53,370 nucleotides of DNA from the IMG/VR virus record IMGVR_UViG_3300029906_000160; one strand, 5' to 3'. The translations under genes were made by a program, and so were the position numbers. This DNA is from a virus. Its lineage: Duplodnaviria > Heunggongvirae > Uroviricota > Caudoviricetes. Every line of letters begins with the position of its first letter. The first letter of the stretch is position 1. Below the pieces are notes generated by a model that saw nothing but the letters and a program-made list of their open reading frames with translations, made no database searches and was not told where the DNA came from. Below are positions 3,046 through 40,600 of the stretch, in pieces.

Positions 3046-6000
3046 AATTTTTAGTAAGACTTTTAATTGTGATACAACCACAAGAAACTTAAATAAAGGT
3101 AAGTCATTTAGATTTAGTGAATGAGATAGAACTTCATTATTTGTAAATGACGAATATATACAAGATTTTGTCTCCTATGCAGGATCATTATATGCTTGTA
3201 TAAAATCAAATTCAAACATAACTCCATCTAACGAACAATATTGAAAATTAGTTATTTCTGGAGTAGAGGGTCCTCAAGGAGAAGTAGGAGAAACTGGTGC
3301 AACTTTTACACCACATGTATCTGAAAGTGGAGTATTGAGTTGAACAAACGATAAAGATCTTGAAAATCCAGTTTCTGTTAATATAAAAGGAGAAAAAGGT
3401 GATCCTTCAACTGTTCCTGGACCTAAAGGAGACAAAGGTGAAAAAGGAGATAGCATAGTAGGTCCTAAAGGAGACAAGGGTGACCAAGGAATTGGTTTAG
3501 AGTTTACTTGAAATGGTACTAAACTTGGAATCAGACGTGAAGGAGAAAGTAGATATACTTATGTAGATCTTAAGGGTGCTACAGGTACTAGAGGTATTCG
3601 TGGTCCTCAAGGTAGACAAGGAAATGAAGGTCCAGAAGGTCCGAAAGGTCCGAAAGGTGATTCATTATATATTCAAGTTTCTGATCCAAACGAATTAGGA
3701 CAAAGGTTTCTACAAAAGAGATATTCAGAAGATGAGCCTTGGGTTCCATTTTTTGATTTATCTGAAATGCGTGGAGAAAATGGTAAATCAATTATTGTTG
3801 AACGTGATAGTAGTGGTAATGTATATTATCATTATGAAGGTGAATCAAGTTCTAATAATAAATTATTGATTTATAAAGACGAAATAAAAGGTCCTAAAGG
3901 AGATACTATTGCAAAAACATATGTTGGAGACGATGGATATCTTTATATTCAATTATCTAACGAAAAAACTCCTCGTAGAGCCGGATATGTTCGTGGAGAT
4001 CGAGGAGCTGATGGACGTGAAATCGTATTAAGAACTTATACTGGTCCTAGTGAAGATCCAAATGATCCTCGTTTAGGCACTCATATTCAATGAAAATATG
4101 CTGGAGACGAATATAAATTATGAACTAATTTAATTCAAATTAATGAATTAATGAATGTTGCATTAATGGGAATTAAATTAGAATATAATTTAGAATATGA
4201 TACAGATGAAGACGGCGTTAAAACTAAATATGATGTTCTTGAAATTAATAGTTATCAAGTCGAATTTGATGAAGAAGGAAAATTAGTTTTAACTGATAAA
4301 ATAGCAAATATTTCAAGAGTTGCAATGCCAACACATACTCAAATCATATCTATTGAGTATGATGAAGAAAAGAATGAAATACAATTTATTCTTGATACTG
4401 CAACAGGTCAACAAGTAGTAGCTATTAATTGTGATCGATTTATTAAAGCAGGCGATGGAATTACTGTTGATCATGGTAATATTATTAACGTACATATTGC
4501 CGATGACAGTGAAGTCTTATCTGATAATTCACATATATTAACCGTTGATAAAGAAGGATTACGAATTCGTGGAGTTAAAGATAAACTTATCAAAGAAGTT
4601 AATTTAATTAAACATGATCGTACTAACGATACACATTATTATTCTTATGATTATGTAGCACAAGATGGCACAATATATCCAATTGAAATTCCAGATTTCA
4701 TAGAATGAGAAAATAATGATGATGGATCTAGACAAATTTTCTTTAGAAATAACGATAAACTTGTAAGTTGAGATAGTGAAAAAGTAATAAGAAACTTAAT
4801 TCATTTAGATGAAACAAATATTACACAACTTGGCGATGCAGAAGCATCAATAAATCTTAACGGAAAAGATTTAAATCCAACTTATAATCAACAAGAAAAA
4901 CTTGCTTTACTTTCTAACTTAGAGGAAGCAGTTACTGGATTACATTTAGTTAAAGAAGATGTGCCAGAAGAATCAGATTTAGCTGCTCGTTATTCTATTG
5001 CAGATAAAGACGGAAATCTTTTAGGAAATGTTCATATTGATGTTCTTAAGGATAACTATCTTAAAGATGTTGTTTATAACGAAGATACTTATACATTTAC
5101 TTTTGATTTTTGAGTAAATGATGATCCTGAAGAAGCGTCTCAAGTTAAAGTAGTTACTATTACTTTACAAAAGCTTTTTGATAATTTAAAGGCTCTTGTT
5201 GATAATCTTGAAGCAAAACATGACTCTGATATTCAAACAATCAGAGATGAACACAAACAGGATGTTAAAACTCTTAACGAAGCAATAGCTAAAAATGCTG
5301 AAGGTATAGAATCATTAAGAGAAAATCTTGAACAAGAAACTACTGACCGTAAAGCTGCAGATAATGTTCTTCAATCTAACATAGATGCTGAAGCACAAAC
5401 TCGTAAAGAAGAGGATGCAAAACTTCAGGAAGCACTTGATGCTGAGATTTCTCGTGCAATAGAAGCTGAACAAGTTATTGATTCTAAATTAAATGATGAG
5501 ATTGCTCGTGCTCAAGTTACTGAATCTCAAATTCAGACTAATTTAGATAACGAAATCGCTAGAGCAAAAGCTGCTGAAGAATCTCTTATTAATAAGACTG
5601 ATGAATTAAATCAGGATCTTATTGATACACAAAATAATTTAGCTGCCGAAATAATTCGTGCGTCTAATGCTGAACAACAATTACAAGAAGTTGTTACTGA
5701 TGCTTTAGCTAGTATTAATGGCAAAATAGATGAATCAGAAAAAGGTCAACCTAATGGTGTAGCTACTCTTGATGAAAATGGATTTATTCCTTCTACTCAA
5801 ATAAATGGTCAAATGGCACATGTATTTGGGGTTGATGGAGTTGCGACAGCTTCTACACTTCCAGCATTAACTAATTTAGATGTAGGAAAAATATATTGAA
5901 CTACTGATACTAAAGAATTTTACAATTGAAATGGATTATCTTGGGACGATCCAATGGCTCCTAAAGATGATACTATTTATAATTTTAGAAATTGTGATGC

Positions 6001-12827: not shown

Positions 12828-12859
12828 TTTGGATTTTTAAAAAATTATTTTTAGATTTG
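12828..12859 (+). promoter_or_regulatory. Bacteroidota primary-sigma promoter upstream of the capsid operon
   Basis: TTTG (12828-12831), 20-nt spacer, TAGATTTG (12852-12859), matching the -33 TTTG / -7 TAnnTTTG consensus. Confidence 0.75.
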
Positions 12860-12899: not shown

Positions 12900-14045
12900 A
12901 TGCCAGAAAACAAAAATTTAGAAATGTTTGATGATCTCTTAACTACAGAACGTGACGATTCGGTTCAGCCACAGCCTGGTGATCTTAGACCACTAGATCC
13001 AACGGATGATCCTATTCTTAATGATTTTGTAAACAGAGAGACAACTCAAGAAGGTGAAGAAGAACCACCACAGGATAATGATACTGGTAATGAAGAAGAT
13101 AAAACTCCTCCAGTTTCTAATTTCTTGTATGAATTCTTAAAAGAAAAAGGAATAGAAGATCCATCTAAGCTTCAATTTGAAAACGAAGATGGAGAAATTG
13201 AAGAAGTTGATTTTAATAGTCTAAGTGAAGAAGAAAAACTTAATATCATTAATAGTATTTCTGATCCTGGACTTAGTCAACACGAAACAGATGTTATTAA
13301 TTATCTAAGACAGAATAACGTTACTTTTAATCAGGTAATTGATTATTTCTCTAAGAAAGCTGTTGAAGATTATTTAGCACAAAATCCTGATCAAGCTCAT
13401 CAGAAAATATATACAATCGATGATTATACTGATGATGAACTTTATTTAGCCGATCTTAAGTCTAAATATCCAGAATTTACAGATGAAGAATTAACATCTA
13501 AATTAGAGAGTGCTAAATCAAATGAAACTTTATTCAAGAAAGAGGTTGACGCTCTTAGAGCAGATTATAAGAAACAAGAAGATGCTGAAATAGAAGCACA
13601 GAAACAGAAAGAGCAGCAAGATTATGATGATTTAGTTGGAAATTTACAGAATATTTTAAGTAATTTTAATGAAGTTGCTCTCGATTCAACTGATGCAGAA
13701 AGTGACGTTTTAGAAATAGAAGACTCAGATAAACAGCAAGTTTTAGCTTATTTGCTTAATCAAGATTCAGAAGGTAAAAGTCAATTGGTAAAAGATTTAG
13801 AAAATCCAGCTACATTGATTGAACTTGCTTGGTTAAGAACTCAAGGTAGAGCTTTAATAGATAATACAACAAGATATTGGAAAGATCTACTTAAACAAGA
13901 AAGAAAAGAAAAAGCTAAACTACAGAAAGAGCTTGAGTCTTATCAAAATAAAGGAAGCCAATCCGTAGTTGTTCCTAAACCTCCAAAGAAGGATGAAAAC
14001 TCCAACACGATTCCTACATTTGGTTCAGTTTGGGATAACATATAA
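12900..14045 (+). CDS. Acidic pre-capsid protein, probable scaffold (381 aa)
   Basis: Very acidic, coiled-coil rich, directly upstream of MCP; no TGA. Confidence 0.65.
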   Translation: MPENKNLEMFDDLLTTERDDSVQPQPGDLRPLDPTDDPILNDFVNRETTQEGEEEPPQDNDTGNEEDKTPPVSNFLYEFLKEKGIEDPSKLQFENEDGEIEEVDFNSLSEEEKLNIINSISDPGLSQHETDVINYLRQNNVTFNQVIDYFSKKAVEDYLAQNPDQAHQKIYTIDDYTDDELYLADLKSKYPEFTDEELTSKLESAKSNETLFKKEVDALRADYKKQEDAEIEAQKQKEQQDYDDLVGNLQNILSNFNEVALDSTDAESDVLEIEDSDKQQVLAYLLNQDSEGKSQLVKDLENPATLIELAWLRTQGRALIDNTTRYWKDLLKQERKEKAKLQKELESYQNKGSQSVVVPKPPKKDENSNTIPTFGSVWDNI

Positions 14046-34956: not shown

Positions 34957-36297
34957 ATGAGTTATACAAATTTACAAGCATTACAATCAGCAATTTCTAA
35001 CGAAATGTTTGGAAGTTTACCTTCATTTGTAACTCCAACTTTACCATTTCCATCTCCTGGAAATTGAACAATACCTAAAAGTTTTGATACTACACAAAGT
35101 TTATTACCGCAAATTCCAAAAAATCCTGCATTAACTGGAAAAGCAACAACTAACTCTAATGCAGGATTAGTTGGATTTGATAATCGATTAAATTCTGGTG
35201 CTGGTAGTTTATTTCAATCCTTAAAAGCAGGCATTGGAAATTTTAATAATAGTTCCATTGGCGGAATTACTTCTTCTGTTGCTACAGGATTGCGAGGATT
35301 AACTGAGCAAGATGTATCATATACAGGAAAAGCTGCAGAAATTGCAAATGGAGTTAGTGATGTTGCAGAAAATATTAATGGAATGATTAATCCATTAGGT
35401 AATACAGCAAATCAAGTTGGAGCAACTATTGGAAATTTAATAGGAGGAACAGAAGATCGTGTAAAGGGAGTAGGTTCTGCTGTAGTTGATGGAATTTCTG
35501 CAGTAGCGTCTAATTTCGGTCCTATTGGAATGGCAGTTGGTGCAGCACTTCAATTAGCAAATGGAATTGGAGGAAAACGTGTTGATAAACTTCAAGATAA
35601 TACTTCAGAAATTGCTAGTCGAACAGGTAGCGCTTATATGGGATCGATTGGAGATGTACAAGATAACATAGACAAATATAGTAATAAAAAAGCAGGGTTG
35701 TTTGATTTTGGGTTTGCTAAAGAAGGAAATAGTGCTATTGATAAAGCAGAGAAGATGCAAAACACTATGTTAGACATAGGAAGATATCAAGATTTAAGGA
35801 AATCGAATAATGCTGCAGCTGATTTAGCTCAACAAAATCGTAATAGATATTCTGGTTATACTGGAGCTATATCTATTGGTCAAGAAGGTATAAAATTACC
35901 GAATTTAAGTTGGGCACATGAACTATTATCTAAATATAATTTACAGAAATTCCAAAAAGGCGGAAAACTTGGAACTCCAGGTATAGAATCTAATGTAATT
36001 GTTGAAGGAGCTTATCATGCTCATAAGAATCATTTAGATGAAATAAATCCAGAACTTGAAAATATGACTCCAAAAGGCATTCCAGTAGCAACAGAAGATG
36101 CGTCTGGTAATAAAACTCAAGTTGCAGAAATAGAAGTTGGAGAATTAATCTTAACTAAAGACTTAACTGATAAACTTGAGGAATTATATAAAGACGGGTC
36201 TGATGAAGCTGCCATTCAAGCTGGAATGTTATTTGCAGGAGAAATTATTGATAACACAGTAGATAATAAAGGGGGAGTTTTAGATGAAGACAATTAA
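34957..36297 (+). CDS. Cargo/ejection-type protein (446 aa)
   Basis: Start at ATG 34957 via one TGA; Gly/Ala-rich hydrophobic segments, FQKGGK motif, AEIEVGE domain. Confidence 0.65.
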
Positions 36298-36880
36298 TCT
36301 TGAAATTAACGATAGAGAATATAATGTTCTTGTAGCACAAACAGAAGATGAAAAAGCTACTGGACTAATGAACGTAGAAGAAATGGATGATAGTGAAGGA
36401 ATGTTATTCATTTATGATGCTCCTCAAACTCTTGAATTCTGAATGAAAGATACAGAAATTCCTTTAGATATAATCTTTATTGACTCTGATTGAGAAGTAA
36501 AGAAAATAGCTAAAGGAAATCCATTTGATGAAACAATTATATCTTGTGATAATGTTCAATATGTTCTTGAATTAAATCAAAATTCTGGAGTACAAGTTGG
36601 AGATGAAATTGATATAGAAGATGATGAATTAAGTCCAGGAAGTAATTTAGATTTAAATAAAATATATGTTTATGGATCAGATGGTAATGTTCAAGCAGAA
36701 ATTGTAGGAGGGGAGCGAATTTTCAGTATATCCAACACGAAAACCCTTATTCGGATAGCTAAGAGAGCATATACTACTAAAAAAGAATCTGATTATAAAC
36801 GACTAGGTAAAAAGATATTTGAATATTTATCTATTCAAGATTCTAATACTCCAGAATACGTAGAACGAAAAGAAAATTAA
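36284..36880 (+). CDS. DUF192-family protein with C-terminal extension (198 aa)
   Basis: GLM...EGMLFIY...EF-TGA-MKDTEIPLDIIFID...VLELN...GD matches the DUF192 GMLF / FWMKNT-IPLD pattern. Confidence 0.8.
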
Positions 36881-36896
36881 TTCAACAATATATAAC

Positions 36897-36923
36897 AAAA
36901 AAGGCGAGTACTAACTACCCGCC
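36897..36923 (-). terminator. Minus-strand intrinsic terminator
   Basis: Minus strand reads ggcgggta-gttag-tactcgcc-tttttt. Confidence 0.75.
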
Positions 36924-37010
36924 ATATACAGTCTCTATAAATGATTTTAAAGTGATTTCTGTGTAATTTATATCCAGAACGTCAACTCTCTTTTTGTAAC
37001 GTTTAGACTG
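36897..37010 (-). ncRNA. Candidate ~115-nt small RNA
   Basis: Bounded by a promoter and a terminator; terminal inverted repeat 36926-36934 / 37005-37013; no ORF. Confidence 0.5.
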
Positions 37011-37015
37011 TATTG

Positions 37016-37046
37016 CAAATATAGAAAAATTTTTAGAAATATCAAA
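37016..37046 (-). promoter_or_regulatory. Bacteroidota-type promoter, minus strand
   Basis: TTTG (37046-37043), 19-nt spacer, TATATTTG (37023-37016). Confidence 0.7.
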
Positions 37047-37068
37047 ATAAAATTAAAATTTAAAAATA

Positions 37069-37100
37069 TTTGGAAAAGTCAAATATTTTTTATAATTTTG
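37069..37100 (+). promoter_or_regulatory. Bacteroidota-type promoter for cargo genes
   Basis: TTTG (37069-37072), 20-nt spacer, TAATTTTG (37093-37100). Confidence 0.7.
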
Positions 37101-37174
37101 AGACCGAGTCGAGAAATAACAAATTAATAAAAGATTTTTTATTATAGTTTAACGTTAAATTAATTAATTATACT

Positions 37175-37576
37175 ATGAAAATTGTAAAAAACTCAGATCG
37201 AGTACAGAAATTTCAGCAAGGAGGACCCGCTCCTATGCCTCAAGATCCTGCTCAGCAACCTGCAGCTCAACCTCAGGGACAAAATGATCCAATTCTTGAG
37301 ATCGCTAACATCTTTATGCAGGGTCTTCAAACTCAAAATTGTGAATTGCTTGCACAAGGTGCTCAAGCTTTCTTAATGTTACTTCAGCAAGCACAAGGTG
37401 GAGCAGAACAGCAAGCTCCTGTAGGCGAACCACAAGGAGAACCAGTCTTTAAGAAAGGTGGTAAAATCTGTGGTCGTAAAAAGAAAGTAAAGAAGGATTG
37501 CAATGGAGGAAAAGTTGCTAAAAATTGTGGTGGCGGTTCCTTTAAGAAATGCAATGGTGGAACTATGAAGAAGTAA
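37175..37576 (+). CDS. Small Gln/Pro-rich protein with basic Cys-x-Gly-Gly tail (133 aa)
   Basis: Intact ORF between a promoter and a terminator; FQQGG, FKKGGK, CNGG/CGGG repeats. Confidence 0.8.
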   Translation: MKIVKNSDRVQKFQQGGPAPMPQDPAQQPAAQPQGQNDPILEIANIFMQGLQTQNCELLAQGAQAFLMLLQQAQGGAEQQAPVGEPQGEPVFKKGGKICGRKKKVKKDCNGGKVAKNCGGGSFKKCNGGTMKK

Positions 37577-37607
37577 TATAGTTTCTCAATAGACAAGATT
37601 TTTAGAT

Positions 37608-37644
37608 ATGAGAGATTAGCTATATTAACTAGTCTCTCATTTTT
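37608..37644 (+). terminator. Intrinsic terminator
   Basis: atgagagattag / ctagtctctcat stem then a T-run. Confidence 0.75.
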
Positions 37645-37662
37645 ATTATAAATTAAGATGAC

Positions 37663-40600
37663 ATGTCACAAGTAAGAAAATTTAAAGACGGAGGAAGTAA
37701 TACTGCAGAAACTACTTCCAAATCTAAACACAATAGTAAATATGGCCATTATATTGTGGATGGAACTACTTATGATGTCAATGATGATTTTATTCGTGAT
37801 TATATAGCTAGTGCAAAACAGTTTGACGATAATAGTACAAATACAGTTGCAAGTCATGTAGTTAATGCACTTAAATCAGGTCAAGATGTTTCTTTAGATA
37901 CTTTAAATAACAGAATTTATGGTATTAATAATTATCTAAATTCTGAAGATGTTGAAAGATCTAATGAGTATTCTCAAAACTCATTAAATAAAAAGTATCA
38001 ACGTAAGTATCGTAGAAAAGAAGCAAGACCTAATTCATCATTACATCAATTAAATATAGGTATTTCGAATTTAGGATCAATTAATTTTACAAATCCTGTC
38101 AAAAAAGCTGATCAACAATCCGCAACATCTTTAATTGATTTATACAGAGATACTAGAAATTTTGATTACAATTCTAATTCTGACGGAACATTAGTATGAT
38201 CTAATGGACCGCAAAATGCAGGTAATTTAGCTGCATTAAATAATTTTATTGATATGCTTAGTATGTCTGAAGAAGACGCTAAGAAAAAATATAATTGAAC
38301 TGGATATGAGGATCAAATTAATGATTTAAGAACATGATATGCGGGAAATCAAAATTATGATTGGGAAGGTCTTAGATCTCGTATTAAAGAAAATCAATTA
38401 GATGATGCAGATTGGGATATTCTTCGTTATATGGGATTTGGAGAAAATCAGCCAAGTTCAAGTTCTGCTTCAAATACTGATAATACTCCCCGTTCATATG
38501 AAGGTTCTGGACTTAACAATGATTGGTTAACTAGAAATAATTATTATGTTCAAAAAGGTTCAGATGAAAACACATATCTTTATCGTTTAGGAACTGATGA
38601 AAATGGAAAACCAAAATATTTAATAGATACATCTGCTAAAATATATCTTCCAAATATGGGGATTCTTGGAGATAATTCTCAATGAAATGGAGGAGCTATT
38701 ATTAACGGGCGTTTTTATACAGAAAATGAAATATGAGATCCTAATTCAGCAGCAGGACAATCTTTTGCAGAATTAACTAGAGCTTGAAATTCTGGTTCTG
38801 GCGAAACATCTTGACTAAATGCGAAAAATACAGGGTGAAGATTCGCAGGATCAGATGCAGATAATTATATGTTTTCTACCTATGATAGAAATACTGGAAC
38901 AAATCCTTTGTGAGATCAATATTTTGACCAATATAAGGACGATGATAATATATGGTATGTAAGAAATTTAGCAAATAATTTTTTAGGTACTCCTAAAGGA
39001 ATGGAAATTATATCATATATTGATCAAAATAATAGATCTAAAGCTGGTTATGAAAATCCTTATTTTGCTGTTTATAATCCAATAGATAAACAATTTAAAC
39101 GATTTGAAAACGAAGAAGCATTAAGTTCTTATTTACAGGGATTAAATATCCAAAAGCAAAGTTCTCTTTATTCTGGAGATGCTAATTTTGATATATATGA
39201 TTTTTTATTTGATAAAAATAAAAATAAGTATTCATATGTTTCTCCGATAAATACATTTACTGGAACTGGTTCATCTCAACAAAGCACTGAGTTATATAAA
39301 GGACCTGATGGAAACTATTATTATCTTTTAGATAATTCTAATCCAGAAGATTTACAATTTATTCGTATTGATGATCAAAACGTAATTAATCAAATATTAA
39401 ATGGTCAAACTATATCTAATGAAAATCTTCCATCTTGAGCAAAGCGTAGATTATTAGAACGTGGAAAAAGAAGATACATGAAACAAGGTGGAAAAATAGA
39501 TTTTAATAAAATCAACTATTTACAAAAACATCAATACGGAGGTATCTTTTCTAATCCATATACAGGATCTACAAATAAAGTAGAACGTAATAAAGATGCA
39601 AAAATAACAATTGGGGGTTCACATCAAGCTTTTGGAGGTGGAAAACACGGAGTTCGTACAGAAGCAGACAAATTAGCTAATTGAGCTACTGGATTTGATA
39701 CAGCTGCTGTAGGAACGTCATTTATACCTGTTTATGGAAATATTGTTGGTGCAGCATCTGGTTTAACCGGTTCAGCTTTACGATTTGCTTCTGACATCAA
39801 GAAAGATGGATTTCAAGGTAAAGATTTATGAAGATTTTTAGGTAATGTTGGATTAGATGCTCTTACTTTAATTCCAGGTTTAGGTTCAGCAGCAGCAGGA
39901 ATCAAAGCTACTAAAGGTGCATCTAAAGTAGCTAAAGTTGCATCTACAATAGCTAAAGGAGCAGGTAAAGTATCAAAATGAGGAGATACCACAAAAGTAG
40001 GAAAAGCCGTTACATATGGATTACCTGCAATGGGAGTATTACAAGGAACAAGTGCAGCCATTCAAGCAGCTACAGATGGACAACCATTAACTACAGATCA
40101 ACTACAAACAATTGCTGGAGGTTTAATAGGAGGAGTAATACTTGGAAATAAAGCTGGAAAAGCTTTCAATAATAAAGCGTTAAAATCAATTCAAAAAGAA
40201 TTAGGATTAAATAAATCTAAATCTTATGAATATAAATCTAAGGATAAAACAGTAAGTTTATCTAAAGATGATATTAATGCAATAGCTAATAAAAAGGTAT
40301 CTGAGGTTAACGAGTTTCTTTATAATAAACTTAAAAATGCAGGAATTGAATTAGAGAAACCTAATTTTGAAACTGCAACTTTATGAAAAGATTTTGGAAT
40401 TACTGCGAATGTAAGTAAAAAAGGAATTAAAGGTTGATGAGGAAATAAACTAAAAATAAAACAAGAAAAACCCAATTCTATAGAAAGTTCTAACTTACAA
40501 AATGAAGATTTAGCTAAAAGATTAACAAATCCTCAATCACGAATTGAACGTAGAGCTCAAAAAGCATACAGTGAACAAATTCTTCAGAATCCTAAATTAG

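Follow-up and report, generated by a model that had tools for sequence, protein, structure and literature searches.

Genome Setting of the Locus

The window (the whole stretch of DNA that was analyzed, 53,370 nucleotides) is a genome segment from a crAss-like phage of the gut that uses TGA as a tryptophan codon; phages of this group are among the most abundant gut viruses. Under translation table 4, broken open reading frames (ORFs) fuse into long plus-strand genes, among them giant genes of 1740 aa and over 2875 aa, and every long ORF of the window then lies on the plus strand, as a preliminary description of this DNA had claimed. Seven group I introns are recognized by Rfam between 14 and 20 kb. 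The locus considered here is the 294-nt gap between a DUF192 gene (36284–36880, plus strand; Pfam E = 3e-26) and P0002 (37175–37576, plus strand), which encodes a small Q/P-rich protein with a basic tail. A candidate small RNA gene lies here, between two virion-protein operons. The predicted transcript of ∼115 nt occupies 36897–37013 on the minus strand, an assignment based on its fold, the lack of an ORF, and homologs found with a covariance model, with the 5′ end put a few bases past the −7 box of its promoter and the 3′ end within a T run. Between the DUF192 stop codon (36880) and the 3′ end of the small RNA (36897) there are 17 nt, and hence no overlap.

On the other side of the gap, P0002 is a constant neighbor of the small RNA and is followed by a terminator-like hairpin with a T5 tract (TGAGAGA…TCTCTCA, 37609–37644, plus strand), which is kept in six lineages; the gene therefore looks like a promoter-terminator unit of its own ahead of the giant cargo genes. 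The 5′ untranslated region of P0002 contains a perfect 12-nt palindrome, TTTAACGTTAAA (37150–37161, plus strand), which is shared with L091 and L120, occurs as a near-copy in L121, and might serve as an operator or form an RNA hairpin close to the start codon. A further consensus promoter of the host type, the same type as both promoters at the small RNA locus, lies at 12828–12859 (plus strand) in the gap before the capsid-operon gene that starts at 12900. A replication origin or primer RNA was also considered for the small RNA site and was rejected, since no GC-skew switch was found there and the cumulative GC skew climbs steadily through 36–38 kb.

Promoters, Terminator, and Predicted Fold

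The small RNA unit opens with a promoter of the Bacteroidota host type, TTTG-N19-TATATTTG, located by pattern match at 37046–37016 on the minus strand, in which a −33 box (TTTG, 37046–37043) and a −7 box (TATATTTG, 37023–37016) are separated by a spacer of 19 nt. This is the Bacteroides −33/−7 type, whose TAnnTTTG motif was used in the transcriptome map of Bacteroides thetaiotaomicron (Ryan et al., 2020, PMC7366714). A second promoter, TTTG-N20-TAATTTTG (37069–37100, plus strand), faces the opposite way with 22 nt between it and the minus-strand −33 box, and serves the gene for the small basic protein as well as the cargo operon; both promoters had been named in the preliminary description and were recovered here. 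Matches to the promoter pattern are not above chance when taken singly (six in the window against 4.05 expected). Only one of the 24 promoter-like matches on the two strands, that of the small RNA, has a terminator within 250 nt, and the small RNA unit is the sole promoter-plus-terminator unit of the 53 kb.

Transcription would end at P3 (36903–36923, minus strand), an 8-bp GC-rich hairpin with five G-C pairs and a GUUAG loop that doubles as an intrinsic terminator together with a U6 tract (36897–36902). The terminator scan of 35500–38500 returned this GC stem and T6 run, already noticed on first reading, as its sole terminator-like site, and gave no plus-strand terminator after DUF192. When read on the plus strand, the hairpin contains an A-C mismatch and lacks a T run, and the terminator is therefore unidirectional.

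The minimum-energy fold of the 116-nt RNA has a free energy of −30.8 kcal/mol (z = −4.74), and none of 200 shuffled sequences folds as well. As first described, the body is free of ORFs, in that no ORF of at least 20 aa is found inside the transcript under code 4; a 21-aa plus-strand ORF opposite the small RNA loses its ATG in L091. The fold contains the 9-bp closing stem that had been pointed out (ATACAGTCT/AGACTGTAT, 37013–37005 and 36934–36926). In this stem, designated P1, the 5′ arm AUACAGUCU (37005–37013, minus strand) pairs with the 3′ arm AGACUGUAU (36926–36934, minus strand), the segment just before the terminator. The inner aacgt…acgtt hairpin that had been proposed inside it did not hold up, being absent from the minimum-energy fold, and AACGT is missing in relatives. 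The fold instead has P2 (36949–36989, minus strand), a two-part inner hairpin with a 13-nt loop, which is the most conserved part of the body and has the consensus AGAGU.GR..UUCUG-loop-CAGAA.YC.ACUUU when read from 36989 to 36949. The only repeat found is a weak 11-nt sequence in two copies, and a repeat array is absent.

Conservation and Covariation in Relatives of the Window Type

Relatives of the window's type (W) were reached via contigs that carry homologs of P0002. The units of L086, L088, and L089 are 96–99% identical to that of the window, and more distant copies occur in L116, L114/L115, L091–L093, L103/L129, and, in truncated form, L120. In four diverged lineages the body is 68–80% identical to the window, and the promoter, P1, P2, and terminator are all kept, with compensatory changes in each helix. 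The identity of the body is about that of the small protein gene (75–86%) and above that of the next gene (63–66%). A covariance model built on the window structure (R1) recovered all W homologs at E values of 1e-11 to 1e-34 and nothing else that was convincing. The promoter motif pair precedes every homologous unit in the relatives whose upstream sequence was read, and every unit that was read ends in a hairpin and then a T run, even where the hairpin has a different sequence.

Within the helices, P2 is paired in 100% of the cells of seven sequences, with one pair changing from A-U to G-C; P1 shows a compensatory change from G-C to A-U in L103 and changes of register in L116 and L091, and a terminator pair changes from U-A to G-C. 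Across the model-fitted W alignment 96% of the cells are paired and four pairs are changed on both sides, compared with 0–2 in slid controls, counts that come from about five independent lineages with few events and from an alignment that leans towards the model to which it was fitted. All seven sequences have G-U at one and the same P2 pair, and G-U pairs also occur in the terminator; as such pairs would be mismatches on the other strand, the minus strand is the functional one. The P3 terminator hairpin is identical at 27 of 27 bases in L116 and L129 despite their diverged bodies, which fits a role for this element beyond termination. L091 and L114 carry another terminator hairpin (GGCGAGG…CTTCGCC, followed by T8) in the same place, so that here the role has been kept and the sequence replaced.

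These data bear on the reading of the site as what is left of a decayed minus-strand gene cassette, or as a chance mix of AT-rich motifs. In favor of such a reading, the site is an insertion hotspot where relatives carry a homing-endonuclease-like, a 218-aa, or a 506-aa gene, and, taken alone, the promoter motif does not occur in the window more often than chance would allow. Against it, an ORF-free unit is kept with covariation across lineages that are 60–80% identical, and no second promoter-plus-terminator pair exists in the window; the comparative data have largely refuted this explanation, which is now barely credible.

The neighbor on the promoter side of the unit is constant, and the far side varies: it is DUF192 in the window, L086, L088, and L089, a 218-aa gene in L116, and a 506-aa minus-strand gene with its own promoter in L091 and L114. 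Whatever gene adjoins the far side, the unit is always back-to-back with the plus promoter. The 506-aa gene (L091, 7–1527, minus strand; also in L114/L115) lies just downstream of the small RNA as an ORFan with a host-type promoter and a hairpin-rich leader, and that of L091 has no match in Pfam or PHROG. In some relatives a gene of 307–313 aa that the window does not have (L089, 1072–1995; L114, 1072–1995; L116, 1073–2014) is inserted after the plus promoter and ahead of the small protein gene; it has DUF723, CapR, and treble-clef zinc-finger matches and is homing-endonuclease-like.

The position of the unit against flanking operons resembles that of the OOP RNA of phage lambda, a short RNA that has a promoter and a terminator of its own, overlaps the 3′ end of cII, and works through this overlap. 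A cis-antisense RNA of this kind would pair with read-through from the upstream operon, and processing by RNase III would separate the messages of the two operons. The small RNA is indeed perfectly complementary to any plus-strand read-through, and no plus-strand terminator lies ahead of it. However, unlike OOP, it overlaps no ORF, being separated from the DUF192 stop codon by the gap given above, and it is kept where the opposing gene is absent, as in L091 and L114, which have no upstream plus-strand gene. What is conserved is in addition the structure and not complementarity alone, and an OOP-like function is therefore regarded as improbable.

Sister Types A and B

A unit of the same build and in the same spot, with another sequence, was found in L001, L002, and L121; in these, the small protein or DUF192 shows 40–55% identity to that of the window. 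An alignment of small-protein homologs (A8) gave 80 IMG/VR loci, and a unit is present in 47 of these. Two sister types, A and B, were distinguished, and both lie, as in the window, back-to-back with the small basic protein gene's promoter. Type A comprises L143 (= L001), L144, L146, L147, L148, and L186, together with L002 and L121. For seven type A sequences in a plain MAFFT alignment, RNAalifold predicts a two-part P2, in which 8 of 10 pairs are changed on both sides in at least one sequence; compensatory change is seen in 11 of all 17 predicted pairs. Type B comprises 40 IMG/VR loci and L124 (an ENA contig). Its RNAalifold prediction has P1, P2 in two parts, and an additional hairpin, P3, after which comes a terminator that varies. 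Among 18 distinct type B sequences, 99% of the cells are paired and 10 pairs are changed on both sides, a count that was reached by none of 500 shuffles and compares with 0–3 in slid controls; the covariation of this type is strong. In L152, for example, the whole of P1 has been swapped from AACCC/GGGUU to GCCUA/UAGGC. G-U pairs are also frequent in type B and fit a minus-strand transcript only.

The three types share the position, the strand, the kind of promoter, the back-to-back arrangement, and the P1 closing stem. They also have in common an A-rich linker that ends in AGAG before P2 and a UUAAA-like stretch directly after P2. A hairpin apex of the form UA-G(U/G)UA(A/G/U)-UA is found in W, B, and some A units; in W it forms the loop of the terminator, and in B that of P3. 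The motif TAGKTADTA occurs elsewhere in the window at chance level only, and its copy at 37623 is part of a plus-strand terminator. None of the covariance models reaches the other types at a significant score. W, A, and B may nevertheless be taken as one family with at least three sequence types, because their architecture and position are shared.

The plus promoter is present at a type-specific distance from the unit in all 16 lineages examined. From the start of the unit to the plus −33 box, this distance is 53–64 nt in W and A, 78 nt in six of seven B-type lineages, and 72 nt in L152. Such spacing could be expected of a cis-acting module, in which the act of divergent or convergent transcription matters and not the RNA, either by tuning the cargo promoter through supercoiling or polymerase competition, or by blocking upstream read-through through polymerase collision; the lack of a plus-strand terminator after DUF192 points in the same direction. 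The compensatory changes in P1 and P2, and loops conserved beyond what termination needs, argue against such a module. In L091 and L114, moreover, the upstream neighbor is on the minus strand, so that there is no plus-strand read-through to block. A purely cis-acting function is thus considered unlikely.

Database Searches

The preliminary description had not recognized the RNA as a member of any family, and this was borne out, as no Rfam 15 family matches 36800–37200 at gathering thresholds. The best loose matches are L20_leader (23 bits against a threshold of 58.7) and 6S-Flavo (18 bits against 85), and the sister types have no Rfam match at E ≤ 0.1. A scan of the JGI metagenomes with the core pattern gave no match, and three matches to this pattern in bacterial genomes were rejected as chance, since they lie inside coding sequence and are unrecognized by the model. 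Similarly, of 20 matches to 16-mers in IMG/VR, 19 were taken as chance and are unrecognized by blastn, leaving L103 as the only real one. Among GenBank phage records, the A and B units have no match, and the window region is matched within the DUF192 gene only. Full-text literature searches revealed no small RNA described for crAss-like phages, and none is mentioned in the main comparative paper on crAss-like genomes (PMC7886860). The central claim of the first description, that of a structured phage small RNA, is supported by the conservation of the unit, the compensatory changes, the strand-specific G-U pairs, and the lack of an Rfam match.

Proposed Role and Relation to Known RNAs

As judged from these sequence comparisons, the small RNA is very probably real, and it is probably highly expressed. 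Compensatory changes and conserved loops indicate selection on the RNA itself, and together with the poor fit of a cis-antisense function in L091 and L114 this makes a structured, trans-acting RNA the best-supported reading. On balance, we favor the view that this TGA-recoded crAss-like phage carries a non-coding small RNA gene that is transcribed independently, the product of which would be stable and would act in trans via P2 and P3. The trans-acting mechanism taken alone is put forward tentatively, as at best an evenly balanced possibility. Host RNA polymerase would start at the Bacteroidota-type promoter (37046–37016) and stop at the intrinsic terminator (36923–36897), giving an RNA of ∼115 nt. 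As the comparison of relatives shows, its 5′ end pairs with the segment just before the terminator to form P1, which encloses the conserved two-part P2, and the P3 terminator hairpin at the end of the RNA has a GUUAG loop that is likewise conserved. The stable folded RNA could then act in trans through P2 and P3, either as the binding partner of a protein or through loop-loop pairing with a second RNA, and would be expressed alongside the virion-protein operons, which have promoters of the same type.

Several more specific roles had been suggested at the outset and found no support. A regulator of splicing is disfavored, as complementarity to the mRNAs of the window is not above chance: against 30 translation-start regions of the window, RNAduplex scored the small RNA worse than shuffled RNAs, and exact complementarity of at least 11 nt to the plus-strand sequence of the window occurs at the null rate. 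Pairing with the neighboring 5′ untranslated region is likewise no better than for shuffles in 15 of 16 lineages (z of about +0.5 to +1.8). An antitoxin role is not borne out either, there being no repeat array and no adjacent toxin gene; in particular, a type III antitoxin RNA (ToxI-like) was rejected, with only the weak two-copy repeat mentioned above and with DUF192 and the small basic protein as neighbors. An RNA-polymerase decoy of the 6S or 6S-Flavo kind (RF00013, RF01685) would likewise be a non-coding RNA of Bacteroidota with paired 5′ and 3′ ends, but the phage RNA is much shorter and lacks the central bubble, and the 6S-Flavo match, far below its cut-off as given above, is on the wrong strand.

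Neither Hfq nor ProQ is present in the Bacteroides host group (Ryan et al., 2020, PMC7366714). Among its trans-acting intergenic small RNAs, GibS likewise comes from a stand-alone gene that has a TAnnTTTG-type promoter and ends in a terminator hairpin, and RNAs of the GibS type share with the candidate a length of 100–150 nt and a low GC content (PMC7366714). GibS differs in that it is chromosomal and has no sequence in common with the phage-encoded candidate, and in that it is largely unstructured with a 5′ seed, whereas the phage RNA is highly structured and closed by a stem between its 5′ and 3′ ends (PMC7366714).

The small RNA lies beside the operon for injected “cargo” proteins and the virion RNA polymerase and is confined to TGA-recoded lineages. 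It would therefore offer a small, mutable handle on late-gene control in crAss-like phages, and possibly on the management of recoding, and RNA family databases would gain a new family from phages, with three subtypes.

Distribution and Stop-Codon Recoding

The distribution of the unit was assessed in 76 loci, which were anchored on the small protein gene and classed by the stop codons that lie in frame in the giant gene downstream. TGA recoding is seen in all 44 unit-bearing loci, a count that includes two with 9 and 12 in-frame TGA and a single TAG, and the unit is present in none of the 17 TAG-recoded loci. About 12 loci with in-frame TGA and no TAG do not have the unit (five scored as TGA-recoded and seven with a single TGA). 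This pattern is what a recoding-linked regulator might produce, that is, an RNA that assists the phage in translating UGA as tryptophan; it might do so by reducing host release factor 2, for example, or through the suppressor tRNA system. Expressed from a late host-type promoter, such a helper could switch the cell to UGA as tryptophan, for instance by silencing release factor 2, and if true this would explain why, among crAss-like phages, the unit is confined to the TGA-recoded branch. However, the association is confounded by shared ancestry, which alone may account for it, and the loci with in-frame TGA that do without the unit speak against a regulator of this kind. The link is therefore a lead and not evidence of function; a regulator of recoding, as first suggested, is unsupported apart from this restriction to TGA-recoded phages and is regarded as very unlikely.

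Loci that do not have the unit show either a short gap from DUF192 to the plus promoter or convergent minus-strand genes after DUF192. In L199, and probably also in the similar L200–L208, only a remnant of a P3-like hairpin is left, beside a minus-strand gene. In L004, L017, and about 30 other IMG/VR loci, a two-way terminator follows DUF192 at about 3075–3115 and is itself followed by convergent minus-strand genes, which in L004, L017, and others encode a 223-aa protein and a giant protein, so that in these DUF192-anchored relatives the cargo block is inverted relative to the window.
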